Source: Candidatus Eiseniibacteriota bacterium (GTDB taxonomy: Bacteria > Eisenbacteria > RBG-16-71-46). From it: a DNA stretch of 61,351 bases. Where the stretch lies: the NCBI GenBank assembly GCA_016223045.1, contig JACRPT010000152.1, positions 1-61,351 of the forward strand, in the 5' to 3' direction. Below, piece after piece: positions 15,723 through 53,061 of this stretch. Made by a program: the position numbers and the translations under genes. Under the pieces are notes generated by a model. The model saw nothing but the letters and a program-made list of their open reading frames with translations. It ran no database searches and was not told the DNA's origin. Positions within the stretch are counted from its first letter, which is position 1. Every line of letters begins with the position of its first letter.

Positions 15723-16457
15723 ATGCGCCGTCTCCTCCCTGCGCTCGTCATCCTGTCCGGGCTCGCGGCTGCCGTCGGCTGCTCGAAGCACCCGACCCGC
15801 GCAGCGTCGCCGGCAGCCGCGTCGCCGTCCCCCGCGCCGAGTTCCCCGGCCGGCGTCATCCGGCTCTTCGAATGGTCCTGGAACAACCGGGACACGTTGC
15901 GGCCGCGCGAGATCCTCACCGACGACTTCCGCTTCCAGTTCGCGCTCGGCGACTCGGCGGGGAACCAGTTCCGCGACCAGCCCATGGACCGCGAGCGACT
16001 CCTCCTCTGCCTGCGCCACCTGTTCGTGGGTGGCGGCGCGCAACCTCCGGCCTCGAGCATCCGGCTCGTGTTCGATCCCGTCCTGAGCGTCCAGCCCGAT
16101 TCCCGTCCCGGCAGGGACCCGACCTGGCACAAGCAGATTCTCACCGGCGTGGACCTGTCCATCAGGTGGCCGGCCAGCGAGTACCGCGTCACGGGCAACG
16201 CCCGCTTCTTCGTGGTGCGCGGAGACTCGGCGGCGATCCCGGCCGACCTTGTGGCGCGCGGGTTCGGCCCCGACTCGACCCGCTGGTGGATCCAGGCGTG
16301 GTGGGACGAATCGCTCGTCGGGCCCGCGGCCGTGGCCGGGCCGTGGCGGTCGCGTGGCGCGGAAGCCCGCGGCGCCGGCCCCGGCCGGGTGCTCCCGGCC
16401 GTCAACCGGACCTGGGGCGACATCCTGGCCGCCTATCTGGCGTCGGTCGCTCCATAG
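15723..16457 (+). CDS. Putative lipoprotein of unknown function with a TWG-type C-terminal tail
   Basis: GAGGAG RBS; signal peptide with lipobox AAVG-C; ends NRTWGDILAAYLASVAP. Confidence 0.75.
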   Translation: MRRLLPALVILSGLAAAVGCSKHPTRAASPAAASPSPAPSSPAGVIRLFEWSWNNRDTLRPREILTDDFRFQFALGDSAGNQFRDQPMDRERLLLCLRHLFVGGGAQPPASSIRLVFDPVLSVQPDSRPGRDPTWHKQILTGVDLSIRWPASEYRVTGNARFFVVRGDSAAIPADLVARGFGPDSTRWWIQAWWDESLVGPAAVAGPWRSRGAEARGAGPGRVLPAVNRTWGDILAAYLASVAP

Positions 16458-16650
16458 CGCCTGGCCGGCGCGCTCCCGGGCCCGTCCCGTTTCCGGGGCC
16501 CGACCTCGCGCGCTCACGGCCGGGCGAGCCTCGCGATCCCGCGACGCCCCGGCTCCGCCCCGGTAGTTGTCCACGTCCTGTTCGTAGTCGAGCGTCTTCG
16601 CCCCGGCGCCGCCCCGCCAGTCCCCGCAAACGCCCCGGCAGCGCCCCGAT

Positions 16651-16679
16651 TTGGCTTCCACCGGCCCCTCGCCTATACT
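16651..16679 (+). promoter_or_regulatory. Sigma70-type promoter for rplS
   Basis: TTGGCT-N17-TATACT upstream of a strong RBS (GAGGAAAGGAG). Confidence 0.6.
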
Positions 16680-16742
16680 GCGCGGCCGCTTGATCGCCCC
16701 CAGGGACCCTCAGGACTTTGGTGGTGAGGAAAGGAGATTCCC

Positions 16743-17117
16743 ATGAGCCTGATCGACAAGATCGAGGCCGCTCAGCTCAAGTCCGACCGTCCCGACCTGC
16801 GACCCGGCGACACCGTCGAGGTCTCGGTCCGTGTCATCGAGGGCGACAAGGAGCGGCAGCAGAAGTTCCGCGGCGAGGTCATCAACGTCCGCGGCGGCGG
16901 GCTGCGCAAGACCTTCACCGTCCGCAAGATCAGCGAGGGCGTGGGGGTGGAGCGCACCTTCCCGATCCACAGCCCGTCGGTGGCGGAGATCAAGGTGATG
17001 AAGCACTCGAAGGTCCGCCGCGCCAAGCTCTTCTACCTGCGGCGCAAGACCGGCAAGGCCGCGCGGCTGACGGAGCGGAAGACGCTCGGCAGCGGGGAGA
17101 CCGCCAAGAAGGAGTAG
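16743..17117 (+). CDS. rplS: 50S ribosomal protein L19
   Basis: [43 protein letters not shown]. Confidence 0.98.
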
Positions 17118-17120
17118 GGC

Positions 17121-28615: not shown

Positions 28616-29758
28616 ATGCTGTTCCTGAGAGAAGAGCACCTCCAGGTCCGCGAGATGGCGCACAAGTTCGCGGACGAGGTGGTCGCGCCGCGCGCCCGCG
28701 AGCTGGACGAGAAAGAGGAGTTCCCGGCCGACATCGTGCGCCAGATGGCCGAGCTCGGCTTCCTGGGCCTGCCGTACCCGGAGAAGTACGGCGGCGCGGG
28801 GCTCGACAACCTGGCCTACATGATCGCGGTCGAGGAGATCTCGCGCGCCTGCGGCTCCACCGGCCTCACGCTCGCGGCGCACGTCTCGCTCGGCTGCTGG
28901 CCGGTCTACGAGAGCGGCACCGAGGAGCAGAAGCTGAAGTTCCTGGTGCCGATGGCGAAGGGCGAGGCGCTCGGCGCCTTCGGCCTCACCGAGCCCGAAG
29001 CCGGTTCGGACGCCGCCGGCACGCAGACCCGCGCCGAGCCGGCGGACGGCGGCTGGCGCGTCAACGGCGCGAAGACGCTGATCACGAACGGGAGCGTGGC
29101 AAAGTACATCACCTTCACGGCGCGCACCGACGCCAGCAAGGGCACCAGGGGCATCTCGGCGTTCATCATCCCCACCGACACGCCCGGCTTCCGCGTGGGC
29201 AAGCGTGAGCAGAAGCTGGGCGTGCGCGGCTCCGACACCGTGGAAGTCGTGTTCGAGGACGTGCTGGTGCCGCGCGACGCGCTGCTGGGCGAGCTCGGCG
29301 GCGGCTTCAAGGCGTTCATGCACACGCTCACCGGCGGGCGCATCTCGATCGGCGCGCTGGCGCTCGGCCTCGCCCAGGGCGCCTACGAGTACGCGCTTCG
29401 ATACTCGAAGCAGCGGAAGCAGTTCGGCAAGCCGATCGCCGAGTTCGAGGGCGTCCAGTTCATGCTCGCGGACATGGCCACGAAGATCGAGGCCTCGCGG
29501 CTGCTGGTCTACCACGCCGCGGTGCTCAAGGACGCCGGCGAGGAGTACTCGAGGCAGGCGTCCATGGCCAAGCTGTTCGCCAGCGAGGCGGCGAACTGGG
29601 TGACCGACAAGGCCATCCAGATCCACGGCGGCCTCGGCTACTGCCGCGATCTGCCGGTCGAGCGCATGCACCGCGACGCCAAGCTCACCGAGATCGGCGA
29701 GGGGACCAGCGAGATCCAGCGCCTGATCATCGCACGCGACATCCTGAAGAACGTCTGA
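28616..29758 (+). CDS. Acyl-CoA dehydrogenase (short/branched chain)
   Basis: [45 protein letters not shown]. Confidence 0.95.
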
Positions 29759-29854: not shown

Positions 29855-31063
29855 ATGACCCGAGCGGCCGACGCCACCATGCGCTGGGCCTCCGCCGCGT
29901 CCACCCTGCCCGACACCGCCGCCGCGGCGGACGAGGTGTGCGCCGCGCTCGCGGCCGCGCTCGGCGACGGACCCGTGGACCTGGCGCTGGCGTTCTTCAC
30001 CGCGTCCCACGTGCCGCGCGCCGAGGCGCTCGCGGCCGCCTTCAAGTCACGCATGCGTCCCGGCACGCTGGCGGGCGCGAGCGCGCACGGCGTGGTCTCC
30101 GCGGAGCACGAGATCGAGTCCGGCCCCGCGCTCTCCGTGATCGCCGCCCGGCTGCCCGGCGTCGCGGTGCGGCCGCTGGTGCTGGTGAACGAGGGCTGGG
30201 GCGAAGCGGTGGCGGATCCGCTCGCCTTCGCGCGCTGCGCGCCCGGGATGGCGGGCGCCGAGCTGGTGCTGATGCTGGGCGAGCCCTTCAGCCTCGACGT
30301 CGAGAGCGTGCTGCGCGCCTTCGACCGCCACGCGCCGGGCGGGCGCGTGGTGGGCGGCATGGCGAGCGCCGCGCCGCGACCGAAGGGGAACGCCCTCTTC
30401 CTCAACGACTGGGTGGCGGGCGAGGGCGGCATCGCCATCGCGCTCGCGGGCGCGCTGCGCGTGGACGTGGTGGTCTCGCAGGGCTGCCGCGCCATCGGAC
30501 CGACGCTCGCCGTGACCGCGGGCGAGGGGAACGTGGTCGCCGGGCTGGACGGCCGCCCCGCGGTCGAACGACTCGAGCAGGTGCTGCGGGAGCTGCCGGA
30601 GGAGGAGCGCGAGCGTCTGAAGCACGGCCTCTACGTCGGCAAGGCGGCGCGCAGGGGCGCCGAGGGGCGCGGCGACTGGCTGATCCGCAACCTGCTCGGT
30701 GCCGACCGCGACCGGGGCGTGCTGGCGGTGGGCGACCACGTGCAGGCGGGTGAGAAGCTCCGGCTCCACGTGCGCGATGCCGCGACCGCGCGCGAGGATC
30801 TGGAGCTGCTGCTCTCGCCTCAGGCGTTCGACACGCGCGCGGAGGCGGCGCTGTTGTTCTGCTGCAACGGGCGCGGACAGGGGCTCTACGGCGCGCCCGA
30901 CGGCGACATCGCGCCGTTGCAGGTCGCGCTCGGCGGCCACGTCCCCGCAGCCGGGATGTTCTGCGCGGGCGAGATCGGCCCGGTGGGCGAGCGCAACCTG
31001 CTCCACGGCCACACGGCGAGCATCGCAGTGGTGCGGGGGAAGGAAGCGCCGCGGGCGGAATAG
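29855..31063 (+). CDS. FIST N/C domain protein
   Basis: GG.AS, VVSQGCR.IG, IRNLLG.D, LLFCCNGRG, GMFCAGEIGPVG..N.LHG.TAS. Confidence 0.88.
   Translation: MTRAADATMRWASAASTLPDTAAAADEVCAALAAALGDGPVDLALAFFTASHVPRAEALAAAFKSRMRPGTLAGASAHGVVSAEHEIESGPALSVIAARLPGVAVRPLVLVNEGWGEAVADPLAFARCAPGMAGAELVLMLGEPFSLDVESVLRAFDRHAPGGRVVGGMASAAPRPKGNALFLNDWVAGEGGIAIALAGALRVDVVVSQGCRAIGPTLAVTAGEGNVVAGLDGRPAVERLEQVLRELPEEERERLKHGLYVGKAARRGAEGRGDWLIRNLLGADRDRGVLAVGDHVQAGEKLRLHVRDAATAREDLELLLSPQAFDTRAEAALLFCCNGRGQGLYGAPDGDIAPLQVALGGHVPAAGMFCAGEIGPVGERNLLHGHTASIAVVRGKEAPRAE
30647..31042 (+). repeat. Direct repeat copy 1 (3' end of the FIST gene)
   Basis: Colinear with 37963-38358 at a constant offset of 7316; ~19 mismatches by hand count. 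Confidence 0.95.
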
Positions 31064-31640: not shown

Positions 31641-31757
31641 GGGTCGGGCCTGGCGTCGCGAAGATGATTCTCGACCCCCCGTGCTAAGCCGGTGTACCTT
31701 GCCCACGCCTTCCCATACCTCACGGCTGCCAGGCCGCCCCGCCGCGGAGACATCGCA

Positions 31758-34700
31758 ATGAGCCGGCGCATCCTGCCCATCGCAGTGCTGAGTTTGGCAT
31801 GCCTGCTCCCAAACAGCGGCCACGCCGGCAAGAACGCGGCAGGAACGGTCCGCCTGAGCTGGGATCCGGCCGGTGCGGTCACCGACCGGACCAAGGTCCC
31901 CGCCGGGGTCTTTCCACTCTATCTACATCTCGATTCTGCTCCCGACGTGCGTGCCCTGGCCGTGCACCTGCGGTGGTTCCCCTTCGACTCCCGCACCAAG
32001 TGCTACAGCTCGGTCTCCGCCGCCGGGAACACAGCGTGTGGGTGGGCGACGGCCGTTCCGCCGAACGGAGACTTCGAGGGCGATTCGTCCTACACCGGGA
32101 GCATCGTGTTCTCGCCGTTGAGCAGCGGCAGGGACTGCGTCGAGTACTGGTTCTCGGCAGCGACCTGCGGCGAACCGAGTCCCGCGGACTTCGTGCTGGC
32201 TTCGGTGAAGGTGAAGGACTCGGCCGGGAGCGTCGATAGCCTCACCGTGCTCAACCGCGCGACGATCCTCGGGGGCTCCAAGATGGCGGTCACAGTCGAG
32301 AGCGTCCATCCCGGGGAGGTCCTGGCCGGTCACGAGGTGGCCGTGACGGTCAGCGGGCGCAACTTCACACCGGGGGCCGCGGTCGAGTTCGATGCCCCCG
32401 GCATCCACGTGGCCGTCTCGCCGGTCAAGGTGGTGGATGAGAGGACGATCCTGGCCACGTTGCTCGCCCCCGACGCGCCGGGAACGGTGCTCAGCGCCGC
32501 GGTGATCCTGCCGGATGGGGGGAGCGGCACGCTCGACCAGGCGTTGAGGCTCGTCGCCTTGCCGCCGCTCCTTCCAGCCAGCGGTGACGACGTTCCCCTG
32601 CCGGCGCCCACGTACGTCACGGAATGGGGCACGCAGGGCAGCGGGGCTGGCGCGTTCCAGTACATCAAGGGGGTCTCCTGCGGTCCCGAGTCGTTGATCT
32701 ACGTGTGCGATTGGGGCAACGGCCGGGTCCAGGTGTTCCGCGAAGGCGGCGCCCTGGAGCGCACGATCCCTTTCGAGACGAGCGCCGAGGGCTATTCGCT
32801 CGGTCCCAGTGACGCCAGCGTGGATCGCGGCGACACGCTTTACGTCCTGGACACCGGCGGCATCGTTCAGATGTTCGGCCCGGATGGAAACCGCATCGCC
32901 GAGTGGAAGACCACCGATTTCGTGCCCCCCGGCAACATCCCTGGCGGCTACCTGGGAGGCATCGAGGCAAGCCCCAACTTCATCTACGTCACCACCAGCC
33001 GCTTGAGCAACAACCCGCCGCACCAGAACGGCGGGATCGTCCAGCTCACCAAGGACGGACAGGTGCTGCGCGAGATCCCGGTGTGGGACTCGAGCGACGA
33101 ATACATCGGCCAGCAACAGGGGCTTGCCACCGACCGTTTCGACAACGTCTACGACGTGATCAACTTCACCGTGGGCTTCAACGGCCCGCGCCAGACCGTG
33201 ATCAAGAAGTACGACAAGAACGGGTTCAAGCTGAAGGCGTGGACCATGCCCGTCGGAGACTACCGCGGTCTCTTCGTGGACCCGTCCGGAGTGGTCTACT
33301 TCACGACTGCGCAAGGACACGTGCGGGTGCTGGCCGACTCGGTCGAGACGAACTGCGACTTCAGCGGCGCGGATTCACCGCGTGGGCCCGCCACGTCCCT
33401 CTATGGGCTGGCCGGCGACTCGCTTGGCGCCTTGTACGTCACCGATCGGAGCGCGAGCCTCGAACGCGTGATGCGGGCTCGCATCGACATCGACGACGAC
33501 GGGCTCAACGACGCGTGGGAAAAGTACGGCATCGAGGTGGACGCGAACGGGCGCCGGTGGATCCCGGATTCACCACAGGTGTTCAAGAAGGATCTCTACG
33601 TCGAGGTGGACTGCCTGGCCGGGCGGACGTTCGGTCCGGCGGCGGTCGAGCTGGTGCGCAACGCATTCGCAAACGTCTCGAGTTGGTCCCTGCCCTCGCC
33701 CAATCCCGGCTTCGTGAACGGGGTCGAGCTCCACGCTCAAGTGGACGAGACCGGGCTTGCCGACCCTGGATTCGCGGGCGATGTGCTCGGCAGCTTCCGG
33801 ACGTTCAAGGGCAGTCGTTTCGGAACGCTCGCCGAGCGCGATTCCGGTTTCACCGCGGCCAAGCGGATGGTGACGCGCTACTGCGTGTTCGCGGCCGACA
33901 ATGCCACGGGTGGCAGCGGCCTCGCCGAACTCGTGGGCGACGACTTCCTGGTGTCGATCGCCCAGTTCGACTCCGCCGGAGTGAGCCCAATCCGGCACCA
34001 AGCGGCCGCCTTCATGCACGAGCTCGGGCACAACCTCGGACTGTGGCATGGGGGCCAGGACGACTGGAACCACAAGCCGAACTACCACAGCATCATGAAC
34101 TACACGTGGCAGTTCCCGGTGCCAGAGAAGCGCGATTGGGAACGCGGGTGGCGACTCGATTACAACCGGGATTCGCTCCAGACCCTGCTCGAGAACGGGC
34201 TCGTGGACGATGATGGCATATGGGACGGAAGCGAGCAGTTGCGGTTCAAGGTTCCGTTCGGGCCGGCAGAGTGTGACGGCGACTTCGTCGTGATGAAGGG
34301 ATGGGCCACCAACACGGGGCGCGTGGACTGGAATCGGGACGGGTTCTGGGGCCTCTGCTTCGATTGCGACATCAATCGATTCGCCGGCCGGAGGGTCCCA
34401 GGCGGTCCTTGCGTCGTTGATGACCCCAGTGCAGGCCAGGCGCTACGCTCGTACCGGGACTGGAACAAGATCCGGTTCCTCCCTCGTCTGGACCCGCATT
34501 GGCGTGTTGACGCTCACGACGAGATGCTCTCTGCGCCGGGTGCCCAGGAGCTGACGTTCAGCGAGTACCAGGCCTGGGCGCTCTCGCCCATCGACTGCAA
34601 CGGGAACGGCATCGAGGACAATGTGGATATCGAGCAGGGCACGAGCCTCGATGTGGACCGCAACCTGATCCCGGACGAGTGCGACCCGCCCAGGCTGTCG

Positions 34701-35840
34701 GGCGTGACCGCCCGAATCCTCGCGTGTCCCGGCGCCGACGCCGAGAGCCTGGCGTGGCGGCTCGACGTGACGGACGTGTACGGAACCAACATCTACGATC
34801 CGGCGGTGCCGATCTACGCCGTGCTGCGCGGCACAGACCCCGGAGTTCGGGCCTGGGATGCCCGGCAACGGACTCTGGGCGACGGCGACACTCTGTGGGC
34901 GGCCAGCTACGATCCCGACAGCGCGCTGGCGAAGTTCCGGGTGGGCCGCTGGTCCGGCTGCGGGACGTTTCGCTGCGACCTCTACGTGGACGACACCCTG
35001 GTGGTTCGCCAGGCGATGACCCAGGTGGTGAGCCTGGACCTGAATGGATATGGGCTGGGGTCGGTGGACCATCTCGATCGCGCCACTTGGAGCGAGTGGC
35101 ATACGAGCGGCTGCCCGAGCTGCCCGGCCTGTGGCGACTTTGACGGGGACGGGGCGCTGGCGGAGTCCGATTCGCTCGCGCTCGACCAGCATCTGGGCCA
35201 CCACGTGCCGAGGCAGCTCTTGACGCCCAATGGCGGCGAGGTCTGGGTCGTCGGCACGCCGGACACGATCCGCTGGGTGGCCGGCGCCGGGGATTCGGCG
35301 CGCGCAAGCCTCTACCTGCTGCGCGACTCGGACGTGGCTTACCGGGCACGCATCGCGCGTGACGTGCCCGACACGGGGCGATTGGTCTGGACGCCGGGTA
35401 CCTCGGTGGCCACCGGTACCGACTTTCGGGTCGAAGTGGTCCACACCGTGGGCGTGATGGACACCGTGACCAACGAGAGCGTGGGCAGCGACGTCTCGGA
35501 TGCCACCTTCACGCTCAGCGGCGGTACGGTGGACGTGCGAGCTGTTGACGGCCCTCGCCCGCTCACCTTTGCGCTCGGTCCCTCGCGTCCTAATCCGTTT
35601 GGCGGCTCGGCGGCCATTGGCTTCGATCTTCCGATCACGAGCGACGTGCGGATGGTGGTGTTCGACTTGCAAGGCCGTGCGGTCCGCCACCTGGTCGCGG
35701 GACGATACGGGCCGGGGCGCTGGACGGTGGAGTGGAATGGCTCTGACGATCAGGGCCGTGCGCTCCCGCCCGCAGCCTACCTCTACCGGGTGGAGGCTGG
35801 ACCGTTCCGAGCCCATCGAAAGGCTGTGCTGCTGAAGTAG
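31758..35840 (+). CDS. 1360-aa secreted multidomain zinc metalloprotease (IPT/TIG, NHL propeller, metzincin-like core, Ca-binding repeats, FlgD-Ig/T9SS-like CTD)
   Basis: Signal peptide; WGTQGSGAGAF..IYVCDWGNGRVQVF; HELGHNLGLWH + SIMNY; DCNGNGIED..PDEC; PNPF..FDLQGR.VR.L..WNG.D. Confidence 0.85.
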   Translation: MSRRILPIAVLSLACLLPNSGHAGKNAAGTVRLSWDPAGAVTDRTKVPAGVFPLYLHLDSAPDVRALAVHLRWFPFDSRTKCYSSVSAAGNTACGWATAVPPNGDFEGDSSYTGSIVFSPLSSGRDCVEYWFSAATCGEPSPADFVLASVKVKDSAGSVDSLTVLNRATILGGSKMAVTVESVHPGEVLAGHEVAVTVSGRNFTPGAAVEFDAPGIHVAVSPVKVVDERTILATLLAPDAPGTVLSAAVILPDGGSGTLDQALRLVALPPLLPASGDDVPLPAPTYVTEWGTQGSGAGAFQYIKGVSCGPESLIYVCDWGNGRVQVFREGGALERTIPFETSAEGYSLGPSDASVDRGDTLYVLDTGGIVQMFGPDGNRIAEWKTTDFVPPGNIPGGYLGGIEASPNFIYVTTSRLSNNPPHQNGGIVQLTKDGQVLREIPVWDSSDEYIGQQQGLATDRFDNVYDVINFTVGFNGPRQTVIKKYDKNGFKLKAWTMPVGDYRGLFVDPSGVVYFTTAQGHVRVLADSVETNCDFSGADSPRGPATSLYGLAGDSLGALYVTDRSASLERVMRARIDIDDDGLNDAWEKYGIEVDANGRRWIPDSPQVFKKDLYVEVDCLAGRTFGPAAVELVRNAFANVSSWSLPSPNPGFVNGVELHAQVDETGLADPGFAGDVLGSFRTFKGSRFGTLAERDSGFTAAKRMVTRYCVFAADNATGGSGLAELVGDDFLVSIAQFDSAGVSPIRHQAAAFMHELGHNLGLWHGGQDDWNHKPNYHSIMNYTWQFPVPEKRDWERGWRLDYNRDSLQTLLENGLVDDDGIWDGSEQLRFKVPFGPAECDGDFVVMKGWATNTGRVDWNRDGFWGLCFDCDINRFAGRRVPGGPCVVDDPSAGQALRSYRDWNKIRFLPRLDPHWRVDAHDEMLSAPGAQELTFSEYQAWALSPIDCNGNGIEDNVDIEQGTSLDVDRNLIPDECDPPRLSGVTARILACPGADAESLAWRLDVTDVYGTNIYDPAVPIYAVLRGTDPGVRAWDARQRTLGDGDTLWAASYDPDSALAKFRVGRWSGCGTFRCDLYVDDTLVVRQAMTQVVSLDLNGYGLGSVDHLDRATWSEWHTSGCPSCPACGDFDGDGALAESDSLALDQHLGHHVPRQLLTPNGGEVWVVGTPDTIRWVAGAGDSARASLYLLRDSDVAYRARIARDVPDTGRLVWTPGTSVATGTDFRVEVVHTVGVMDTVTNESVGSDVSDATFTLSGGTVDVRAVDGPRPLTFALGPSRPNPFGGSAAIGFDLPITSDVRMVVFDLQGRAVRHLVAGRYGPGRWTVEWNGSDDQGRALPPAAYLYRVEAGPFRAHRKAVLLK

Positions 35841-37299: not shown

Positions 37300-37555
37300 A
37301 CCAGCCCGGCCGTGGCACCACATGAAGGTCACGGCCGTCGGGAGCTCGTTCCGCTGCTTCTGGGACGACACCGAGCTCACCACCACCCCGATCACGGATG
37401 GCGATCTCGGCTCGGGCTGGGTCGGCGTCTGCAACTTCCGGTTCGATCTCGGCGGCGTGCCGTTCCTGACCGACGACCTGCTGCTCTCGCCCGAGGGCGA
37501 ACCCACCCCCACCATCCCTGCCACCTGGGGAGGTCTGAAGGCTCGGTATCGATGA
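37300..37555 (+). pseudogene. Orphan C-terminal fragment of a ConA-like/DUF1080-like secreted protein with a TWG tail
   Basis: WHHMKVTAVG..F....D......D....G.VG ... PATWGGLKARYR; no start codon or signal peptide. Confidence 0.6.
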
Positions 37556-37614: not shown

Positions 37615-37956
37615 ATGCGCCACCACGTGCCCGGTCGACCGGTGTTGCTCGTCATGCTGGTGGTGACGCTCGTTGGGTCCGCTTCGCCCCCGGCCGGGCG
37701 GGATGCGGTGCCGGCCCACTTCGGCGACGGGATGGACCGGATCGGTCGACACTTCCCGCTCGACATCGTCGAGCAGGGCGACTCGACCCTGACGGCGGTC
37801 GCCTGCCTCGCGGCGGACTTGCCGCCGTCCGTTCTGGAGGTGGCCGCGGAATCCGGCTGAGCCGCCGCCGCCGCGCTGCCAGCCGACCCTCCAGCGCTGC
37901 CCATGGCGCCCATCGGCTCCTCCGGGAACATGGTCCCCGGCGACAGCATCCAGCCC
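37615..37956 (+). pseudogene. Degenerate N-terminal fragment of an exported protein (possibly a trypsin/HtrA-like peptidase)
   Basis: RBS and signal-like N-terminus; internal TGA at 37858-60; LPMAPIGSSGNMVPGDSI resembles the HtrA LG.S..L..G segment; runs in frame into repeat copy 2. Confidence 0.35.
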
Positions 37957-37962
37957 AAGCCC

Positions 37963-38379
37963 GCGCGCACGGGCGCCGAGGGGCGCGGCGACTGGCTGAT
38001 CCGCAACCTGCTCGGCGCCGACCGCGACCGCGGCGTGCTGGCGGTGGGCGACCACGTGCAGGCGGGCGAGAAGCTCCGGCTCCACGTGCGCGACGCCGGG
38101 ACCGCGCGCGAGGACCTGGAGATGCTGCTCTCGCCGCAGGCGTTCGACACGCGCGCGGAGGCTGCGCTGCTGTTCTGCTGCAACGGGCGCGGACAGAGGC
38201 TCTACGGCGCGCCGGACGGCGACATCGCGCCGCTCCAGGCGGCGCTCGGCGGCCACGTCCCCGCGGCCGGGATGTTCTGCGCCGGCGAGATCGGCCCGGT
38301 GGGCGAGCGCAACCTGCTCCACGGCCACACGGCGAGCATCGCAGTGGTGCGGGGGAAGCAGACGGGACAGGACGGCTAG
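37963..38379 (+). pseudogene. Direct repeat copy 2: orphan 3' end of the FIST gene
   Basis: Near-identical to 30647-31042, then diverges for the last few codons. Confidence 0.92.
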
Positions 38380-39926: not shown

Positions 39927-40832
39927 ATGAGCACCGTGACCGAAGCAGTGGCGAGCGGCCCGTCGGCCGCCGTGAAGAAGATCGCCGTCGTGGGCGGCGG
40001 CACCATGGGGAACGGCATCGCGCAGGTGTTCGCGAGCAGCGGCTTCGACGTGCAGCTGGTGGACCAGCGCCAGGAGTTCGTGGACCGCGCGCTCGGCACC
40101 ATCGGCAGGAACCTGGAGCGCGTGGCGAAGAAGCTGAACTGGGAGTCCGACCGCGTCCAGGCGATCCTGCAGCGCGTCCGCGGCGGGGTGAGCCTCGAGG
40201 CGGCGCGCGACTGCCAGCTGGTGATCGAGGCGGTGAACGAGGACCTGGCGGTCAAGCGCCGGATCTTCGAGCAGCTCGACGCGCTGGCGCCGGCGGGCGC
40301 GGTGCTCGCCAGCAACACCTCGAGCATCTCGATCACCGAGCTCGCCGCGATCACGAAGCGTCCCGACCGGGTCATCGGCATGCACTTCATGAACCCGGTG
40401 CCGGTGATGCAGCTGGTCGAGCTGATCCGCGGGCTCGCCACCAGCGACGCGACCTATCGTCTGACGGAGGACCTCGCGAAGCGGCTGGGCAAGACGCCGG
40501 TCGAGGTCAACGACTATCCCGGCTTCGTCTCGAACCGCATCCTGATGCCGATGATCAACGAGGCGTGCTACGCGCTCATGGAAGGCGTGGCGAGCCGCGA
40601 CGCCATCGACACGGTGATGAAGCTCGGGATGAACCATCCCATGGGGCCCCTCGCGCTAGCTGATCTCATCGGGCTCGACACCTGCCTCAGCATCATGGAA
40701 GTGCTGCACGAGGGGCTCGGCGACTCGAAGTACCGTCCCTGCCCGCTGCTGCGCAAGATGGTCAAGGCGGGCTACCTGGGGCGCAAGAGCGGACGCGGAT
40801 TCTACGACTACACGGAGGCCGCGAAGGCATGA
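39927..40832 (+). CDS. hbd: 3-hydroxybutyryl-CoA dehydrogenase
   Basis: [46 protein letters not shown]. Confidence 0.95.
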
Positions 40833-42019
40833 CCCCCGGGACCCTCGCGCCGGCCACCGGCCCGTCGTTCGATCTTGGCGAGGACCAGCTCGCGGTGCGC
40901 GAGATGGTGCGCGAGTTCGCCGAGAGCGAGATCCGCCCCATCGCCGCGGCGATCGACGAGAGCCACGAGTTCCCGATGGAGACGACGAGGAAGATGGCCG
41001 GGCTGGGCCTGCTCGGCATGTTCGTGCCGGAGGAGTACGGCGGCGCGGGCATGGACTACCTGTCTTACGTCATCGCCGTCGAGGAGCTGTCGCGCGTGTG
41101 CGCCACGCACGGCGTGATCGCGTCGGTCAACAACTCGCTGGTGTGCTACCCGCTGCTGACCTACGGCAACGAGGAGCAGAAGCGCGAGTACCTGGTGCCG
41201 ATCGCGAAGGGCGAGAAGCTCGGCTGCTACTGCCTGACCGAGCCGAACGCCGGCAGCAACGCGGCCAACCAGCAGACCACCGCGGTCGAGGACGGCGACG
41301 CCTTCGTCCTCAACGGCACCAAGGTGTTCATCACCACCGCCGGGCCGGCGGACGTGCTGATCCTCTACGCGGCCACCGACCGGTCGAAGGGGCCGAAGGG
41401 CATCACCGCCTTCATCGTGGACGCCGACACGCCCGGGGTGAACAAGGGGAAGAAGGAGAAGAAGCTCGGCATCCGCGCCTCCGACACGCGCGAGATCGCG
41501 CTGGTGAACGCGCGGGTGCCGAAGGCCAACGTGCTGGGCGAGCGGGACAAGGGCTACACCGTCGCGCTCGCCACGCTGGGCGGCGGCCGCATCGGCATCG
41601 CCGCGCAGGCGCTGGGGATCGCGCAGGCGTCGCTCGAGGCGGCGGTGCGCTACGCCGGCGAGCGCGTGCAGTTCGACCGCATCATCGGCGAGTTCGACGC
41701 CATCCGCGAGATGCTGGCGAACGCCGCCATCGAGGTCGAGACCGCGCGGCTGCTGGTCTACCAGTCGGCCTGGCTGCGCGACCGGGGCCGCCCGCACACC
41801 AAGGAGGCCTCGCTCGCCAAGTGGCACGCGGCGGAGGCGGCCTCGAAGTGCGCGAACTGGGCCATCCAGGTGCACGGCGGCTACGGCTACATGGCCGAGT
41901 ACCTGGTCGAGCGCTACCTGCGTGACGCGAAGATCTGCGAGATCTACGAAGGCACCACCGAGGTGCAGAAGATGGTGGTGGCCGCCCAGGTCCTGAAGGA
42001 GCGCGCGCTCGCCGGCTGA
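40829..42019 (+). CDS. Acyl-CoA (butyryl-CoA-like) dehydrogenase
   Basis: [37 protein letters not shown]. Confidence 0.95.
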
Positions 42020-42048: not shown

Positions 42049-42432
42049 ATGACCCGTCCCGTCCGGCCCGTCGCCCTCGTGATCCTCACGCTGTGCATGA
42101 TCTATCCCGGCGTGACCCTGCTGTTCCAGGGGCTCTATCCGTTCGTCGCCGGCGAGAGCTTCATGCTCTCCGGGCAGCTCGGTCCCTGGGTGACGCTGGG
42201 GCAGAAGCTCGGGATCCCGCCGGTGGTGGCGCCGCTGCTCAAGACCGCGCTCGGCCTGCTGTGGGTGCTGGGCGTGCCCGGCCTGTGGGCCGGCGACCGC
42301 CGCGCCTGGCCGCTGGTGCTGCTCGCAGCCGCGGGCTCGGTCCTCTACCCGTGGGGCCCGTCGGCGATGGGGATCATCGCGCTCGTGTGCCTCCTTGGCT
42401 TCCGCGAAGACCCCGACCGGGTGCTTGCCTGA
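42049..42432 (+). CDS. Hypothetical membrane protein
   Basis: GAGGAG RBS, several hydrophobic helices, operonic position. Confidence 0.7.
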   Translation: MTRPVRPVALVILTLCMIYPGVTLLFQGLYPFVAGESFMLSGQLGPWVTLGQKLGIPPVVAPLLKTALGLLWVLGVPGLWAGDRRAWPLVLLAAAGSVLYPWGPSAMGIIALVCLLGFREDPDRVLA

Positions 42433-42439
42433 GAAACCC

Positions 42440-43591
42440 ATGAACCTCGACCTCACCGAAGACCAGGTCCAGATCCGCGACGCGGTGCGCGAGCTGTGCG
42501 GGCGCGAGTTCGGCGCCGCGGCCGCCAGCTGGGACCGCGAGCAGGTGGTGCCACGCTCGGCGATCGCCACGCTCGCCGAGCAGGGCTTCCTCGGCATGGC
42601 GATCCCCGAGGAGTGGGGCGGCGTGGGCTACGACTCGCGCACCATCACGGTGGTGCTCGAGGAGATCTCGCGCGTCTCGGCGGCGCTCGGCATCATGATC
42701 GCCGTGCACAACTCGGTGGGCGCGCTCCCGGTGTTCCGCTTCGGCACCGACGAGCAGCGCAAGCGCTTCCTGCCGCGCCTGGTGTCGAAGGAGCTGGGCG
42801 CGTTCTGCCTCTCCGAGCCGGCCTGCGGCTCGGACGCGGCGGCGCTCACCTCCACCGCGGTGCGCGACGGCGACCGCTACGTCCTGAACGGCGCCAAGAA
42901 CTGGGTGACCAACGGCGAGCAGGCCGGGGTCTACCTGGTGTTCGCGCGCACCACGAAGGACGGCGGCGCGAAGGGGATCTCCGCGTTCATCGTGGAGCGC
43001 GGCACGCCCGGGCTGGTGCTCGGCAAGCCCGAGGACAAGATGGGCCTGCGCGGCTCCGAGACCGTGGGGCTGACGCTCGAGGACCTGAAGGTCCCGGTGG
43101 AGCAGCGGCTGGGCGCCGAGGGCGAGGGCTTCAGCATCGCCATGAGCATGCTGGACGCGGGCCGCGTCGGCGTCGCCGCGCAGGCGCTCGGGGTGATGCG
43201 CGCGGCGTTCGAGGAGGCGGTGAAGTACGCGCAGCAGCGCCAGGCCTTCGGCGGGCCGATCGCGAAGATCCAGGCCATCCAGTTCAAGCTCGCCGAGATG
43301 GAGCGGCGCATCCAGAGCGCACGGCTGCTCACGCAGAAGGCGGCGTGGCTCAAGGACACCGATCAGCCCTAGACGCGCGAGGCCTCGATGGCCAAGCTCT
43401 ACGCCAGCGAGGCCGCGACCTGGGTGACCCACCAGGCCATCCAGGTGCACGGCGGCTACGGCTACGTGAAGGAGTATGCGGTCGAGCGCTACTACCGCGA
43501 CGCGCGCGTGATGGAGATCTATGAGGGCACCAGCGAGATCCAGCGGCTGGTGATCGCGCGCTCGCTGCTCAAGGACGGCGTGAAGCTGTGA
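42440..43591 (+). pseudogene. Acyl-CoA dehydrogenase with an in-frame TAG at 43370-43372
   Basis: [54 protein letters not shown]; both halves are in the same frame. Confidence 0.88.
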
Positions 43592-45004: not shown

Positions 45005-45646
45005 CTACCGGTAGAGCAGCTTCAGCTCTCCCCAGGTCCTGCCCCGCGCCGGCGTCGTGGTGTGGCAGGTGGACGCGGCATCCTGCGGGTCGCTCGGTGA
45101 GATGAGCTGGAAGTCCGTGGCGTTGTCGTCGGTGTCCTGTCCGCTCCCGAGACTGCCGCCCGGCTTGCGCTCGTAGCCCTGGTCCACGTTCGTGGTGAGC
45201 GGCGCCAGCAGCGTGCCCTCCCCGTACGCCGAGCCCGGGCTCATCCCGGCGGCGTCCATGACGATGGTGCCGTTCTGCACCGAGACGCCGCCGTCGTCGG
45301 GGATGCTGCCGGTGGTGAACCACTGGTCGGGCGCCACCGATCCCGAGTAGCCGTTGGGGTTCGCGAACAGGTAGCGGCAGCCCGGGAACACCACGATGCC
45401 GCCGGTCACCATCCCCAGCTCGACCGTGTTCCCCGCGTTGTCCGAGGCGTGGACGGTCCAGCCGCCGATCAGGAAGGGACTGGTGGACACGTTGTACAGC
45501 TCGATGAACTCGTCGTCCGCTCCATTGGGCCCGCGCGTGCGGAACTCGCCGATGACGAGCGTGGTCGAGGTCGCGAAGGCGGTGGCGAAGGATCCCAGCA
45601 CGGCAAGCAGCGCGAGCGGGGACACGAGGCGGGTGGCAAGGCGCAT
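45005..45646 (-). CDS. Secreted lamin-tail-domain (LTD) protein with a TWG tail
   Basis: Signal peptide; LVIGEF......DEFIELYN; ends RTWGELKLLYR. Confidence 0.85.
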   Translation of the reverse strand: MRLATRLVSPLALLAVLGSFATAFATSTTLVIGEFRTRGPNGADDEFIELYNVSTSPFLIGGWTVHASDNAGNTVELGMVTGGIVVFPGCRYLFANPNGYSGSVAPDQWFTTGSIPDDGGVSVQNGTIVMDAAGMSPGSAYGEGTLLAPLTTNVDQGYERKPGGSLGSGQDTDDNATDFQLISPSDPQDAASTCHTTTPARGRTWGELKLLYR

Positions 45647-45968: not shown

Positions 45969-46616
45969 TCAGCGGTACAGGATCTTCACCCGGCCCCAGG
46001 TCTCGCCGGTCGCGGGCGTGGCCGCGACGCAGATCGAGGCACGATTCTGCGGGTTGCTCGGTGAAACCACGAAGAAGTCCGAGGCGTTGTCGTCGAGGTC
46101 CTGTCCGTTTCCCCCGATGCCGCCCGGCAGGCGCTCGTAGCTCCGGTTCGTGTTGGTGGTGAGCGGCGCGAGCACCGTGCCTTCCTTGTAGGCCGACCCC
46201 ACGCTCATCCCGACCTGGTCCACGACGACCGAGACCGTATTGAGCAGTGCGATCCCGCCGTCGTCGGTGATCCCGGTGGTGTAGGTCTGGTCGGGCGACA
46301 CGCCACCCGAATAGCCGCTCGGGCTGTTGTTGGCGAGCAGGTAGTGGCAGCCGGGGTTGAGGAAGGTGTTCGCCGGGATGGTGGCCCGCGTCGCGATGGA
46401 ACCGCTGCTGTTGGAGCCGTTGACCCTCCAGCTGCCGAGGTTCACGGCGGCGCCCGACAGGTTGTAGATCTCGATGAACTCGTCGCTCGCCCCGTTCGGG
46501 CCACGGGTGCGGAACTCGCCGATCACGATGTTCGGGGAGGCGGCGGCCGCGGGGGCCGCGGGCACCAGCAGCGCGAACAGCGCCGGCAGGAGGATGAGGG
46601 GGGAAGCAGGGCGCAT
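45969..46616 (-). CDS. Secreted lamin-tail-domain (LTD) protein with a TWG tail (paralog of 45005-45646)
   Basis: GGAGG RBS; signal peptide; IVIGEFRTRGPNGASDEFIEIYN; ends ETWGRVKILYR. Confidence 0.85.
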   Translation of the reverse strand: MRPASPLILLPALFALLVPAAPAAAASPNIVIGEFRTRGPNGASDEFIEIYNLSGAAVNLGSWRVNGSNSSGSIATRATIPANTFLNPGCHYLLANNSPSGYSGGVSPDQTYTTGITDDGGIALLNTVSVVVDQVGMSVGSAYKEGTVLAPLTTNTNRSYERLPGGIGGNGQDLDDNASDFFVVSPSNPQNRASICVAATPATGETWGRVKILYR

Positions 46617-46777
46617 GCGCGTTCCTCCGCGATGAGGGCGCTCGCGCCTGGGAAGCACGTCCCGGGAGCCCGGTGTCTCGGGGCTGCCGGGGGGAGGACG
46701 AGCGTCCGTTCGACGGCCTCTATCCTAGCGCTGCGGGGCGCGCGCCGCGATGGAAGATTGCGAAACCCGGGGAATGC

Positions 46778-48977: not shown

Positions 48978-48981
<4 letters not shown>

Positions 48982-51004: not shown

Positions 51005-51384
51005 CAGCCCTCGATCACCACGCAGGCGATGGCGAGCCCGCCGTCGTGCGTGAGGGAGACGTGGGCCGAGCGGCCGCCGAGCGACTCAAAGCGCTCGCGC
51101 GCCGTGCCGTGGAACTCGAGCCGCGGCTGGCGGCCGCCCGGCTGGATCACCTCGAACTGCCTGAAGCCCACGCCGCCGCTCATGCCGGTGCCGAGCGCCT
51201 TGGAGGCCGCCTCCTTGGCCGCGAAGCGCGCCGCCAGGTGGGGCAGGGGGTCTTTGTGCGTGCGGCAGTAGGCCAGCTCGGCCTCGGTGAACAGGCGCCT
51301 CTCCATGCGCTCGCCGAAGCGCTCGAGCGCCTCGACCAGCCGCTCGACCCTGATGACATCCACGCCGATCCCGCGGACGGGCAC
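51004..51384 (-). CDS. acpS: Holo-[acyl-carrier-protein] synthase
   Basis: GIGVD, FT..E, AARFAAKEA..KALGTG, VSLTH. Confidence 0.95.
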   Translation of the reverse strand: MPVRGIGVDVIRVERLVEALERFGERMERRLFTEAELAYCRTHKDPLPHLAARFAAKEAASKALGTGMSGGVGFRQFEVIQPGGRQPRLEFHGTARERFESLGGRSAHVSLTHDGGLAIACVVIEG

Positions 51385-51542
51385 CGGTCCTCCGAACTCG
51401 GGACGAAGGGGAGACTCGTGGCTGGCAATCTAGAGAGCGGCCACCCCGGAATCAAGCGGGCCCGGCGCACCGGAAGCCGCCTGCGGCGGGGTCCCCGCGG
51501 CGCAGCGGCGAATCAGCTCCCGCACATCCAGTACCATCAGGC

Positions 51543-51620
51543 TCCTTCCTGCCGGGGGCACTCTTCTCTGGTTGAGTGAGAACCACCCAGAGAACGTAGG
51601 TGCTCCACTGGCGGGAAGGA
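51543..51620 (+). ncRNA. Candidate structured RNA (long three-segment hairpin)
   Basis: Stems 51543-53/51610-20, 51555-61/51600-06 and 51564-71/51587-94; G-U pairs favour the + strand; family unknown. Confidence 0.35.
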
Positions 51621-52311
51621 CCACCGCGTGCCGTCGGTCGTCTCCGCCCCCGGCCGTTCGCTGCCCCGGGTCTGTTCCGGTTCCGGGAGACGTCTCCGGT
51701 TGGCTCCCGGTCGCGCGAGAACCTTGCCCACCTACCGGGCGAAAGCGGGTGGCAACCCATCGGGCGAAGACCCCGGTTCCCTGCCCGCGAAGTCCCTGGC
51801 TACCTATGCGCCGACGGGTGACACATCCGCGCTTTCCGGAGGCCAGCGATGGATGAAGAGAAGGCGCGCGAGGGGAGCGGGCCGGACCCATCGGGGGCGC
51901 TGTCGACCACGGTCACGTCGTAGCAGTCCGTGGAGGCGGGTCCCGGGACCCCTCGCGGGGGAGTACCTACCGCCGCCCGCGGGGAAGCGGAATGCTCTCA
52001 TCTCACTCATCTCCCACGTCCCCTCTTCCTCCGGGTAGCCTAACGGACCATAGCCGCTGCTGGGGCCAAGGCGTCCACTGCATCTGTCACCGGCATCGTG
52101 GCAATCCGCTGGGATGTCGCATGTCAGGCCGCATGTTTGATACGGGTGTTCTTTCGCCGCACGCTCCCACCCGCGCGGCGATTCGTCGGCTACGCCTTGG
52201 GGCAACGATTGAAAGCCCGCAGTCCAGGTTCGCCGCAGGCGCTCCGGGCCTTGCATCGGATTGTGCAGTGCACTCCGGCGCGCAGGGAAGCGCCCGACAA
52301 GGAGGCCGAGC

Positions 52312-53061
52312 ATGAGAATCCCCCTCGCGTTGATGGTTCTTCTGGTCGGAACGGTAGTCCCGGCGGCGGGAGCGACGGCCGCCGGCGTCAACTTCTCCTG
52401 GGACGCCTGCGCTTCAGAAGGCGGTGTCCAGAGCAAGACCTTCGCCTGCAACACGAATGCTGGTTCCCGGGCGGCGTGGGGCTCGTTCATCGTCGCAGCC
52501 GCCCAGGACAGCTTCGTCGGCGTCGAGATCATCGTCGCTGTGCAGGCCCAGAGCGACACGCTGCCCGACTGGTGGCAGTTCTTCAACTCCGGGGCCTGTC
52601 GCCAGACCGCGCTCTCGACCTCCTTCGACTTCACCTCCGCTCCCGGGGCCTCGTGCACCGATCCCTGGTTCGGGCAGGCGGCCGGTGGCTTGGCCGCATA
52701 TCACACGATCAACACCGTGCCGCCGGTGCCGAGCGGCCTGCCGAACGCCGCGCGGATCAAGATCGGTGCGGCCGTGCCGAGCACGAGCCCGCTCACTCTC
52801 GCGGCGGGGACCGAGTACTACTGCTTCAGGCTGATCCTCACGAACGCCAAGACGGCCGGCAGCGGGGCATGCAGCGGCTGCGACATCCCGGTCTGTCTGA
52901 CCCTCTCCGAGATCAAGGTGGCGCAACTGAACGGCGCGGTCGAGGACCTGACCCAGCCGATCTCGCAGAACGTCGTCTACTGGCAGTCCAGCGGGGGGAG
53001 CTGCGGGGCGACCGCGCCGCAGAACGTCATCTGGGGGCAGATCCGGAGCATTCTCCGGTGA
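52312..53061 (+). CDS. Cys-rich secreted protein of unknown function with a TWG-like tail
   Basis: AAGGAGG RBS; signal peptide; many Cys; ends NVIWGQIRSILR. Confidence 0.8.
   Translation: MRIPLALMVLLVGTVVPAAGATAAGVNFSWDACASEGGVQSKTFACNTNAGSRAAWGSFIVAAAQDSFVGVEIIVAVQAQSDTLPDWWQFFNSGACRQTALSTSFDFTSAPGASCTDPWFGQAAGGLAAYHTINTVPPVPSGLPNAARIKIGAAVPSTSPLTLAAGTEYYCFRLILTNAKTAGSGACSGCDIPVCLTLSEIKVAQLNGAVEDLTQPISQNVVYWQSSGGSCGATAPQNVIWGQIRSILR

Follow-up and report, generated by a model that had tools for sequence, protein, structure and literature searches.

A short C-terminal tail shared by unrelated secreted proteins of Candidatus Eisenbacteria, a candidate sorting or anchoring tag

Background

C-terminal sorting signals have repeatedly led to envelope machines, such as sortase, exosortase, rhombosortase, the T9SS and the myxosortases. 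To our knowledge, all known small C-terminal signals are tripartite, consisting of a motif, a transmembrane (TM) helix and an Arg cluster. In the S-domain of secretins, a disordered C-terminal peptide becomes an amphipathic helix on a pilotin lipoprotein, which allows outer-membrane targeting with neither a TM segment nor cleavage; we know of S-domains only on secretins, with one cargo per pilotin. Another short terminal signal, the peroxisomal PTS1, is a tripeptide of the eukaryotic cytosol that is read by the TPR domain of PEX5.

The TM helix and the Arg cluster are given as the defining parts of the tripartite design in a preprint (Haft 2023), which also mentions WGxxGxxG-CTERM (NF038039), a tripartite-like, putative C-terminal sorting domain that starts with W-G and has no known enzyme.

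The DNA considered here is a window of 61,351 nucleotides, and the host is an uncultured soil bacterium represented by a Candidatus Eisenbacteria MAG. A sequence-only reading of the window had quoted similar C-termini for five ORFs, ending at 45005(-), 45969(-), 37555(+), 53061(+) and 16457(+), and the translations give exactly these termini (Table 1). It had also regarded the tail as unlike LPXTG, PEP-CTERM, GlyGly-CTERM and the T9SS C-terminal domain (CTD), which is upheld by the absence of a TM helix in the tail and of any match to CTD or NCBIfam sorting models.

The tail motif and its terminal position

Across the whole genome of 3.88 Mb, 41 ORFs in 22 unrelated sequence clusters (BLAST) share a C-terminal tail of 16 residues with the consensus [TV]-[PA]-x-[RE]-x-x-[TS]-W-G-x-[IVL]-K-x-[LIM]-Y-R-stop or, more broadly, [TV]-[PA]-x-[RE/QK]-x-x-[TS]-W-G-x-[IVL]-[KR]-[SAT]-[LIM]-[YL]-[RHK]-COOH. 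The signature is followed by no more than 9-10 residues, at the centre of which is a conserved Lys, and a single terminal R, H or K ends the tail, one or two extra residues after the Arg being tolerated. The proteins are small, with a median length of 247 aa.

The position of the motif is strictly terminal. When 35,760 six-frame ORFs of at least 50 aa from the whole genome were scanned with the regular expression WG.[ILVM][KR]..[YFLW], it was found that 41 of the 50 matches end 1-2 residues before the stop, and none of the nine internal ones resembles the tail. The scores of a PSSM of the tail are bimodal, with 41 ORF ends at 30-54, one at 21 and all others at or below 2.2, while the top internal window reaches 16.6; neither search of the genome ORFs gave a convincing internal copy. 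At the DNA level, a strict pattern for the tail has 29 matches in the genome against none for its reversed control. This is far beyond chance, and as the codons of the tail vary from gene to gene, selection acts on the peptide and a DNA repeat can be rejected.

Using a crude heuristic on N-termini, signal peptide-like sequences were recognised in 36 of the 41 tail ORFs as against 156 of 400 control ORFs, and three of the five tail ORFs that escaped recognition are cut by contig ends. The homologues that were listed also begin with signal peptides. Restriction to the C-terminus and co-occurrence with signal peptides, two properties on which the sequence-only reading had staked its proposal, are thus both found on a genome-wide scale. 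No promoter motif common to the tail genes was seen by eye in the 90 nt upstream of 36 of them.

Tail proteins of the window

Table 1. Tail-bearing genes of the window
Product	Position	Strand	Tail coded at	C-terminus and remarks
Secreted lamin-tail-domain (LTD) protein	45005..45646	-	45005-45055	213 aa from the signal peptide start; ...TPARGRTWGELKLLYR-stop
Paralogous secreted LTD protein	45969..46619	-	45969-46019	216 aa; ...TPATGETWGRVKILYR-stop
Cys-rich beta-sandwich protein, ~250 aa	52309..53061	+	53011-53061	...APQNVIWGQIRSILR-stop; K->R, Y->L subfamily variant
C-terminal remnant, ~82 aa, of LamG-like tail protein	37307..37555	+		...PTIPATWGGLKARYR-stop
Lipoprotein, lipobox ...AAVGC	15723..16457	+		Degenerate, extended tail ...AVNRTWGDILAAYLASVAP-stop

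Both LTD proteins match the LTD model of Pfam, have a signal peptide and fit the strict pattern. The beta-sandwich protein belongs to the largest tail family, with 15 paralogues in the genome, and its model gave no more than weak cohesin/Ig-like matches in Foldseek. Its tail had been counted as a member of the motif, which holds with the refinement that WGQIRSILR is a regular subfamily variant.

The secreted nature ascribed to the tail-bearing families agrees with the signal peptide counts, with the exception of the ORF that ends at 37555. This is a C-terminal remnant for which neither a signal peptide nor a homologous N-terminal part was found; tblastn aligns only its last 82 aa, at 52% identity, with a full-length relative from another genome (locus L050), and it has only the tail in common with the paralogue on contig C66.

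The tail of the lipoprotein had been called degenerate, and the orthologues, present in 30 of 31 sampled genomes of the same taxonomic family (G000 included), agree with that description, as their C-termini range from near-canonical (TWGQVLSLYR-stop, same genus) through relaxed or extended to decayed. A lipobox was found in 11 of the 12 loci examined of this family. The decay of the tail in the one clear lipoprotein family that has it fits a redundancy of two anchors, albeit as a single case.

Conservation, predicted structure and anchor swapping

No other part of these proteins is as well conserved as the tail. W241, G242 and R249 are at least 90% conserved in the beta-sandwich family, whose mean column identity is 32%, and T207, W208, G209, K212, Y215 and R216 are invariant in the LTD family. 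Upstream of the Trp, positions -7 (T/V), -6 (P/A), -4 (R/E/Q/K) and -1 (T/S, at least 95%) are constrained in families that were gathered without using the motif, and across phyla T/S-W-G is 95-100% conserved in the tail. In some lineages Arg or Gln stands in place of the conserved Lys and Leu, Phe or His in place of Tyr, and the last residue may be H, K, Q, E or N. Covalent attachment through the conserved Lys, as in Braun lipoprotein, is disfavoured since Arg or Gln replaces it in whole subfamilies.

AF2 models of two unrelated families share a confident body and a linker of low pLDDT, followed by a terminal helix that makes no packing contact with the body. For the LTD protein at 45969..46619, a beta-sandwich body (pLDDT ~94) is followed by a low-confidence linker (residues 186-204) and a helix at 205-215; for the protein at 52309..53061 (pLDDT 91), the linker spans 225-240 and the helix 241-248. 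With a pLDDT of only ~57-69, the terminal helix is a low-confidence prediction. A phmmer search with the last 30 aa of one tail protein gave no PDB match at E <= 10.

Homologous passengers carry different C-terminal signals. Among 120 LTD homologues with bodies 47-92% identical, 51 have the tail at the C-terminus, 11 a TM-plus-basic anchor and two a Por_Secre_tail CTD, and 120 CHRD homologues include 46 with the tail, at least 13 with variant tails, 19-23 with PEP-CTERM and three with a T9SS CTD, all of them joined directly after the same ...GGEIRGQ body end. Such swapping of the tail with PEP-CTERM, TM-plus-Arg anchors and T9SS CTDs is a classic mark of a sorting or anchoring signal.

Distribution across phyla

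About forty proteins of the host genome end in the tail, and thousands more do so in at least three related candidate phyla, where the tail is conserved phylum-wide: the strict pattern is matched in Eisenbacteria by 183 of 206 genomes, in a second phylum by 165 of 181 and in a third by all nine, with no match for the reversed pattern in any of the three. The sequence-only reading had mentioned similar tails in related candidate phyla, and scans beyond the host phylum confirm this. Outside a few related phyla the tail was not seen in the sampled matches, and none of the 80 titled matches of an all-species scan bears a Bacteroidota label.

With a relaxed pattern, several genomes that have no strict match hold 1-7 variant tails (...KKMHR, ...GLFR, ...KLYQ), and only 10 of the 12 tested genomes of one family (f18) stay at zero. 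There is consequently no clean tail-free set, which undermines phylogenetic profiling. The profiling that had been suggested for finding co-distributed machinery gave no discriminating gene.

Search for known families and machinery

The tail is not a catalogued sorting signal in the libraries searched. No Pfam or NCBIfam model covers it; NCBIfam sorting-signal models gave no match at E <= 1 for the five window proteins and none at E <= 0.1 for 37 others, and PF18962, PF13860 and TIGR04183, which represent the T9SS CTD, match none of the 42 tail proteins. A full-text literature search that included motif strings found no published description in the text it covered. A screen for a C-terminal TM segment with a basic end picked no tail ORF and retrieved one classic PEP-CTERM ORF, which is a different gene.

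The sequence-only reading had postulated a dedicated export or attachment machine, for which no candidate emerged. The single exosortase of the genome has its own single classic PEP-CTERM protein, and PF09721 (exosortase) is missing from seven of the eight tail-rich genomes considered in the second phylum, and 10 of 12 family-f18 genomes with no strict tail have it; owing to this lack of co-occurrence and to its own substrate, exosortase was rejected as the tail enzyme. SprA_N and PorV are found in the host genome and in most genomes of the panel, irrespective of tails. Among tail-rich genomes, 15 of 18 have SprA_N and 18 of 19 have PorV, and where tails are absent or nearly absent the counts are 27 of 31 and 31 of 31. 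Each of the three tail-rich genomes that gave no SprA_N match has more than 100 FlgD_ig CTDs. Considering that both are near-ubiquitous and that PorV copy number is unrelated to tail count, they were rejected as discriminators.

Gene neighbourhoods were surveyed in two ways. ORFs lying up to 8 kb from the 41 tail genes were clustered, and tail arrays of four other genomes (G207, G210, G015 and G003) were inspected in 14 windows of 18-20 kb. Nothing recurred among the neighbours except genes for T9SS-CTD cargo, for ABC transporters, for kinases and for acyl-CoA dehydrogenases, and Pfam assigned housekeeping functions to 108 neighbouring and window proteins. Over the five genomes, the neighbours are housekeeping, metabolic or T9SS cargo genes, and no partner, enzyme or pilotin-like lipoprotein was found beside the tail genes.

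The host genome has 159 ORFs with a CTD of the T9SS/FlgD-Ig type, with a median of 830 codons. A division of labour is thus observed within one genome, the CTD being placed on large proteins and the tail on small ones. The CTD proteins of the genome have no tail-like motif, and a decayed T9SS CTD was accordingly rejected as the origin of the tail.

Proposed role of the tail and alternatives

The view that the tail serves to target or anchor secreted proteins is strongly supported by its C-terminal restriction, its association with signal peptides, its presence in 22 clusters and three phyla and its replacement by known anchors. For the way in which it might act, we favour, with a probability of roughly one half, a post-Sec C-terminal sorting or anchoring tag of new architecture whose helix docks on an envelope component. 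The N-terminal signal peptide would export the protein, after which the ~16 conserved residues would be presented by a flexible linker that is rich in Thr and Pro and often begins directly behind a Cys. The last 9-10 residues would then form a short cationic amphipathic helix, with Trp, Ile/Val, Leu and Tyr on one face and flanking Lys and Arg, and this helix would dock non-covalently on a conserved envelope component, most likely an outer-membrane protein receptor. The small passenger domain would thereby be held at the cell envelope or surface, a role equivalent to that of PEP-CTERM, a TM anchor or a T9SS CTD on homologous passengers in other lineages. The length of the footprint (16 residues), its invariant T/S-W-G and the small residue at +5 suggest a protein partner rather than bulk lipid.

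The wider proposal falls somewhat short of even odds and is put forward tentatively: the tail may define a new diderm sorting pathway, in which a 16-residue non-TM helix tag is read by a dedicated putative envelope receptor, common to Eisenbacteria and at least two neighbouring candidate phyla, serving ~1% of the proteome and independent of sortase-type enzymes.

Among the alternatives, the one that survives best, although we consider it unlikely, is a self-sufficient in-plane anchor, in which the cationic amphipathic helix lies in the interface of the periplasm-facing or outer leaflet with no receptor or machine, as do the C-terminal amphipathic anchors of some penicillin-binding proteins. 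Both AF2 models have an amphipathic helix, Trp and Tyr with flanking Lys/Arg are typical of interfacial peptides, tandem paralogue arrays could give avidity, and no discriminating gene or conserved neighbour was found. Conservative substitutions (K/R/Q, Y/L/F/H) are tolerated, and physicochemical constraints alone could account for part of the pattern. Nevertheless, 9-10 residues are very short for stable binding of a monomer, and a near-invariant T/S-W-G, an upstream P-x-[RE] and a fixed distance to the carboxyl end, kept in three phyla and more than 20 families, exceed what lipid binding usually demands. Amphipathic anchors could evolve anywhere, whereas in the sampled matches the motif is confined to a few related phyla.

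Less probable again is a T9SS-coupled mini export signal, with the tail either read by a T9SS component or riding on CTD cargo, which would let small proteins through the outer membrane with no need for an 80-residue CTD of their own. T9SS parts occur in every tail-bearing lineage examined, the two signals replace each other on LTD and CHRD passengers and differ in the size of their carriers (247 aa against 830 codons), and at five of about ten loci, genes of the beta-sandwich tail family have CTD cargo genes as neighbours on the same strand, with gaps of 1-19 nt in two of them, including 53061/53080 in the window. However, genomes in which tails are absent or nearly absent have T9SS genes just as often, and the T9SS signals known so far are folded Ig-like domains. 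Moreover, the tail and the CTD proteins share neither model nor motif, and Bacteroidota, the phylum in which the T9SS is best known, are missing from the titled matches.

Finally, it is very improbable that a periplasmic PDZ-type S41/Ctp protease binds the free end and cuts at P-x-[RE] for maturation or turnover, for although the fixed distance of the motif from the carboxyl end, the possible cut site in the conserved upstream P-x-[RE], four S41 peptidases in the host genome and an S41+PDZ gene adjoining a three-gene tail array in another phylum (locus L166) would agree with it, S41 occurs in 10 of 14 control genomes across bacteria and archaea and so cannot explain the narrow distribution of the tail, the adjacency is single among 14 arrays examined, the 1-2 extra residues after the Arg and non-basic last residues fit a carboxylate clamp poorly, and it is hard to see what purpose a common pro-peptide would serve on more than 20 unrelated domains of binding type.

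If the tail is a docking tag, its 16-mer peptide would be a concrete bait for the partner, and it would be a further case in which to study how small folded proteins are brought to the outer membrane in diderm bacteria. In whole phyla from which nothing has been cultured, dozens of proteins per genome carry the tail, and it may serve as a simple marker by which the surface or envelope proteome of these inhabitants of soil and sediment can be predicted from sequence; an HMM of it would give a useful label to thousands of 'hypothetical protein' annotations.

Comparison with known systems

The tail breaks the tripartite design and yet replaces PEP-CTERM, TM anchors and T9SS domains on the same passengers. 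PEP-CTERM/exosortase and the other tripartite signals (LPXTG, GlyGly-CTERM, PGF-CTERM, MYXO-CTERM) resemble it in being short C-terminal tags on signal peptide-bearing proteins of many small, unrelated and often tandemly duplicated families, with a Pro-containing signature at the start, and PEP-CTERM uses the same junction in the CHRD homologues. They differ in that the tail has no TM helix and no Arg cluster, and exosortase and tail do not co-occur. WGxxGxxG-CTERM is likewise C-terminal with W-G at its start, although none of the 42 tail proteins matches the sorting-signal models of NCBIfam. The type A CTD of the T9SS (Por_Secre_tail/FlgD_ig) is also a C-terminal signal on Sec-exported proteins, occurs in the same phyla and the same genome and is interchangeable with the tail on LTD and CHRD passengers; it is, however, a folded domain of ~80 residues on 159 large proteins, whereas the tail comprises 16 residues on small proteins and is predicted to be helical. 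PTS1 shares with the tail a conserved motif at the extreme C-terminus of unrelated cargo, read as a free end, but it is a tripeptide of the eukaryotic cytosol, with no homology to the tail, nor is there evidence of a TPR receptor. The closest analogue for the possible action of the tail is the S-domain/pilotin pair of secretins, a likeness that rests on the AF2 prediction of a terminal helix; unlike the S-domain, the tail is carried by dozens of unrelated cargoes.

A conserved C-terminal tail on small secreted proteins

The sequence-only reading had noted five ORFs with similar ends, and translation reproduces all five quoted C-termini exactly. In the source genome (a 3.88 Mb assembly of 164 contigs with ~72% GC, the window being contig C146), the 35,760 six-frame ORFs that reach 50 aa contain 50 matches to the regular expression WG.[ILVM][KR]..[YFLW]. 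As that reading had supposed, the motif is a terminal one: 41 matches lie at the C-terminal end, one residue from the stop codon in 38 and two residues in 3, and the nine internal matches appear unrelated to the tail. A PSSM built from the tails scored these 41 ORF ends at 30-54, one other end (...TFGALKAKYSH) at 21 and all others at 2.2 or below, the best internal window reaching 16.6. The strict DNA pattern, W-G-x-[ILVMF]-K-x-[ILVMF]-Y-R-stop, was matched 29 times as against 0 for the reversed control. Tail codons vary from gene to gene, and it is therefore the peptide that is conserved and not a DNA repeat.

When the tail was removed, the 41 ORFs fell into 22 BLAST clusters, namely a beta-sandwich cluster (15 members), an LTD cluster (3-4 members, also seen by Pfam) and many singletons, with NHL propellers, CHRD, DUF7450 and a CarboxypepD_reg-like protein among the carriers recognised by Pfam. 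The proposed link to secretion holds on a simple signal-peptide heuristic, which was positive in 36 of the 41 tail ORFs versus 156 of 400 controls; of the five tail ORFs that it missed, three are incomplete because they reach a contig end.

Contig ends come within 250 nt of six of the 41 tail genes (C8, C60, C70, C75, C78 and C101), and near-identical tails occur in two contig pairs, C70/C75 and C8/C78; the assembly seems to have been broken by recently duplicated tail genes. On contig C153, two tandem tail genes share an ATGA overlap, with the stop of the first inside the start of the second, and a 984-codon T9SS cargo gene begins 1 nt after the second, which suggests translational coupling.

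Consensus and predicted structure

A consensus was derived from families collected by their body domains, with the motif not used. Counting from the Trp as position 0 (97-100% conserved), it reads T/V at -7, P/A at -6, R/E/Q/K at -4, T/S at -1 (at least 95%), G at +1 (98-100%), I/V/L at +3, K (R, rarely Q) at +4, S/A/T at +5, L/I/M at +6, Y (L/F/H) at +7 and R (H/K) at +8, followed by the stop. In the beta-sandwich family, of 120 homologues with identities as low as ~30%, 112 keep the tail; few columns are conserved at 90% or more (the mean column identity is 32%), and W, G and the terminal R belong to them. Similarly, T-W-G, K, Y and R of the tail are invariant in the LTD family. In 22 of the 41 source-genome tails, as counted from the tail strings, the Trp follows a Cys at a distance of 9-14 residues; this Cys probably belongs to the last disulphide of the body. 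An N-x-T sequon, a possible glycosylation site, precedes the Trp in the beta-sandwich family (N at -3 in 68% and T at -1 in 88% of the 112 homologues); the sequon Asn is missing from the LTD family.

In the AlphaFold2 models of two unrelated families, beta-sandwich (52309-53061; pLDDT 91, helix 241-248) and LTD (45969-46619; pLDDT 84, helix 205-215), the beta-sandwich body is predicted with confidence and followed by a linker of low confidence; the motif is modelled as a terminal helix that does not pack against the body in either. A helical wheel would place W, I/V, L and Y on one face and K and R at its flanks. We infer, with a probability of about 0.5, that the tail is a post-Sec docking or anchoring tag: the predicted amphipathic helix, on its flexible tether, would bind a conserved envelope partner, and docking would keep small binding-type domains at the outer membrane or surface. 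Such a helix might also serve as a receptor-free, in-plane lipid anchor, an alternative that we consider unlikely.

Replacement by known sorting devices

The strongest evidence for the tail as a sorting or anchoring signal is its replacement on homologous passengers. Among 120 LTD proteins with 47-92% identity to the window protein in its body, 51 end in the tail, 11 in a hydrophobic helix with a basic cluster and 2 in a T9SS Por_Secre_tail domain, the remainder being fragments or having other ends. Of 120 single-domain CHRD proteins, in all of which the body ends in ...GGEIRGQ, 46 continue into the tail and at least 13 more into variant tails with Q, E, N or D as the last residue; classic PEP-CTERM follows in 19-23 (11 of them with Pfam PF07589) and a T9SS CTD in 3. 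The tail thus holds the slot of three established surface-sorting devices. The T9SS/FlgD_ig CTD is common to 159 ORFs of the source genome with a median of 830 codons, as against a median of 247 aa for tail proteins; hence the domain is found on large proteins and the tail on small ones. Only one family with the tail clearly consists of lipoproteins, and there the tail is decayed or extended in most orthologues, as would be expected, in this single case, if the lipid anchor made the tail redundant.

Genes of the window

Besides its tail and cargo genes, the window carries housekeeping genes and genes of fatty-acid and methylmalonyl-CoA metabolism. The ORF ending at 37555 is no more than a remnant. 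Over its C-terminal ~82 residues it shares 52% identity with the end of a full-length tail protein from another genome (locus L050) that bears a signal peptide; further upstream, no homologous sequence in any frame and no signal peptide was found. Together with a lone FIST_C ORF, 7 kb downstream of a full FIST protein, it makes ~36-38 kb look like a patch of gene debris. One acyl-CoA dehydrogenase ORF, whose C-terminal domain ends at 83 of 150 positions, is followed by a short ORF, and the two may represent a frameshift or broken gene.

Features of the window and of other contigs and loci discussed in the text
Feature	Position	Strand	Remark
Tail lipoprotein	15723-16457	+	translation
Acyl-CoA dehydrogenase	28616-29758		intact paralogue
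FIST N+C protein	29855-31063	+	full length
T9SS cargo, NHL/Ig protein	31692-35840	+	FlgD_ig; large, secreted
Tail remnant	37307-37555		
FIST_C ORF	37903-38379	+	158 aa, FIST_C alone
Acyl-CoA dehydrogenase	40829-42019		intact paralogue
Acyl-CoA dehydrogenase ORF	42395-43372	+	possibly broken
Short ORF	43388-43591	+	
LTD (lamin-tail-domain) protein	45005-45646	-	Pfam; paralogue of next
LTD (lamin-tail-domain) protein	45969-46619	-	Pfam; paralogue of preceding
Cys-rich tail protein	52309-53061	+	~250 aa; no family match
T9SS cargo, GH43/GH32-like propeller	53080-55278	+	FlgD_ig; large, secreted
T9SS cargo, DUF5122 propeller	55292-57985	+	Por_Secre_tail; large, secreted
Exosortase	contig C13:1096-1851	-	source genome
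PEP-CTERM ORF	contig C19		source genome; 100 aa
Tandem tail genes	contig C153:43527-45070		source genome
S41 protease with PDZ	L166:11035-12786		genome G207

Taxonomic distribution

Within its own phylum, Candidatus Eisenbacteria, the strict pattern occurs in 183 of 206 species genomes (182 of 205 without G073, a genome flagged unpublished) and the reversed control in none. Families f1-f17 of this phylum have the tail in 161 of 164 genomes (source genome not counted) at 1-37 copies each, and family f18 in only 21 of 41 at 1-4 copies. A scan of all species gave at least 125 loci; among the matches listed, 117 are preceded by 55 or more open codons, and of the others four or five run into a contig end and about three seem to be chance matches. 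The tail is present in 165 of 181 genomes of a second phylum (NCBI labels Latescibacteria, Krumholzibacteriota and 'Fibrobacteraceae'), in all nine of a small third phylum (11-40 copies each) and in 29 copies in a genome labelled Effluviviaceae. The 1, 1 and 2 copies in genomes labelled Lachnospiraceae, Polyangiaceae and Kerfeldbacteria are chance or mis-binning, and no Bacteroidota label appears among the 80 titled matches listed. In other genomes, too, tail genes are small, coding for about 140-370 aa, and tandem arrays of them are common, the largest with six or seven paralogues.

Search for associated machinery

The source genome encodes one exosortase (PF09721, E 4e-63, 594-codon frame) and exactly one classic PEP-CTERM ORF (...VPEP, a hydrophobic helix and RRRRGR), which appear to form a system of their own, one enzyme with one substrate, that is unrelated to the tail. 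Of 8 tail-rich genomes in the second phylum, 7 have no exosortase, and of 12 tail-poor f18 genomes, 10 have one; this mismatch rules it out as the enzyme of the tail.

The tail could also be a miniature T9SS-coupled export signal or a hitch-hiking device, a reading to which we give rather little credence. As a minor lead, same-strand T9SS cargo flanks 5 of ~10 loci of the beta-sandwich family, including that of the window, where the tail gene ends 19 nt before the first base of the cargo gene. Of 49 panel genomes, 42 have SprA_N (15 of the 18 tail-rich ones and 27 of the 31 with zero strict tails), and PorV was detected in 49 of 50; each of the tail-rich genomes without a SprA_N match, three in number, has more than 100 FlgD_ig domains. 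With T9SS genes throughout the panel, distribution neither ties T9SS to the tail nor rules it out. Additionally, a relaxed pattern recovered a few variant tails each (...KKMHR, ...GLFR, ...KLYQ) in several genomes with zero strict matches, only 10 of 12 tested f18 genomes staying at zero, and there is therefore no clean negative set for profiling.

Gene neighbourhoods in five genomes showed no recurrent envelope gene beside tail genes. That the tail is a recognition tag for a PDZ-type C-terminal protease is very improbable. As a second minor lead, an S41 C-terminal processing protease with PDZ lies beside a three-gene tail array, separated from it by one thymidylate kinase gene, and this adjacency is the only one among 14 arrays examined.

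Comparison with known sorting signals

The sequence-only reading had allowed that the tail might match a characterised signal; in a scan of 42 proteins, no Pfam or NCBIfam model, sorting signals included, covers it even when the E-value limit is relaxed, and the literature, searched with motif strings among other terms, yielded no description of it. According to a preprint (Haft 2023), known small C-terminal sorting signals are all tripartite, with a motif, a TM helix and an Arg cluster. Unlike these signals, the tail has neither a TM helix nor an Arg cluster. We rate it as a new variant among C-terminal sorting signals; that it marks a categorically new pathway is a tentative proposition, somewhat short of even odds. 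Its closest functional analogues include the S-domain of secretins, which folds when bound to a pilotin lipoprotein, and, in eukaryotes, the logic of PTS1 and PEX5.
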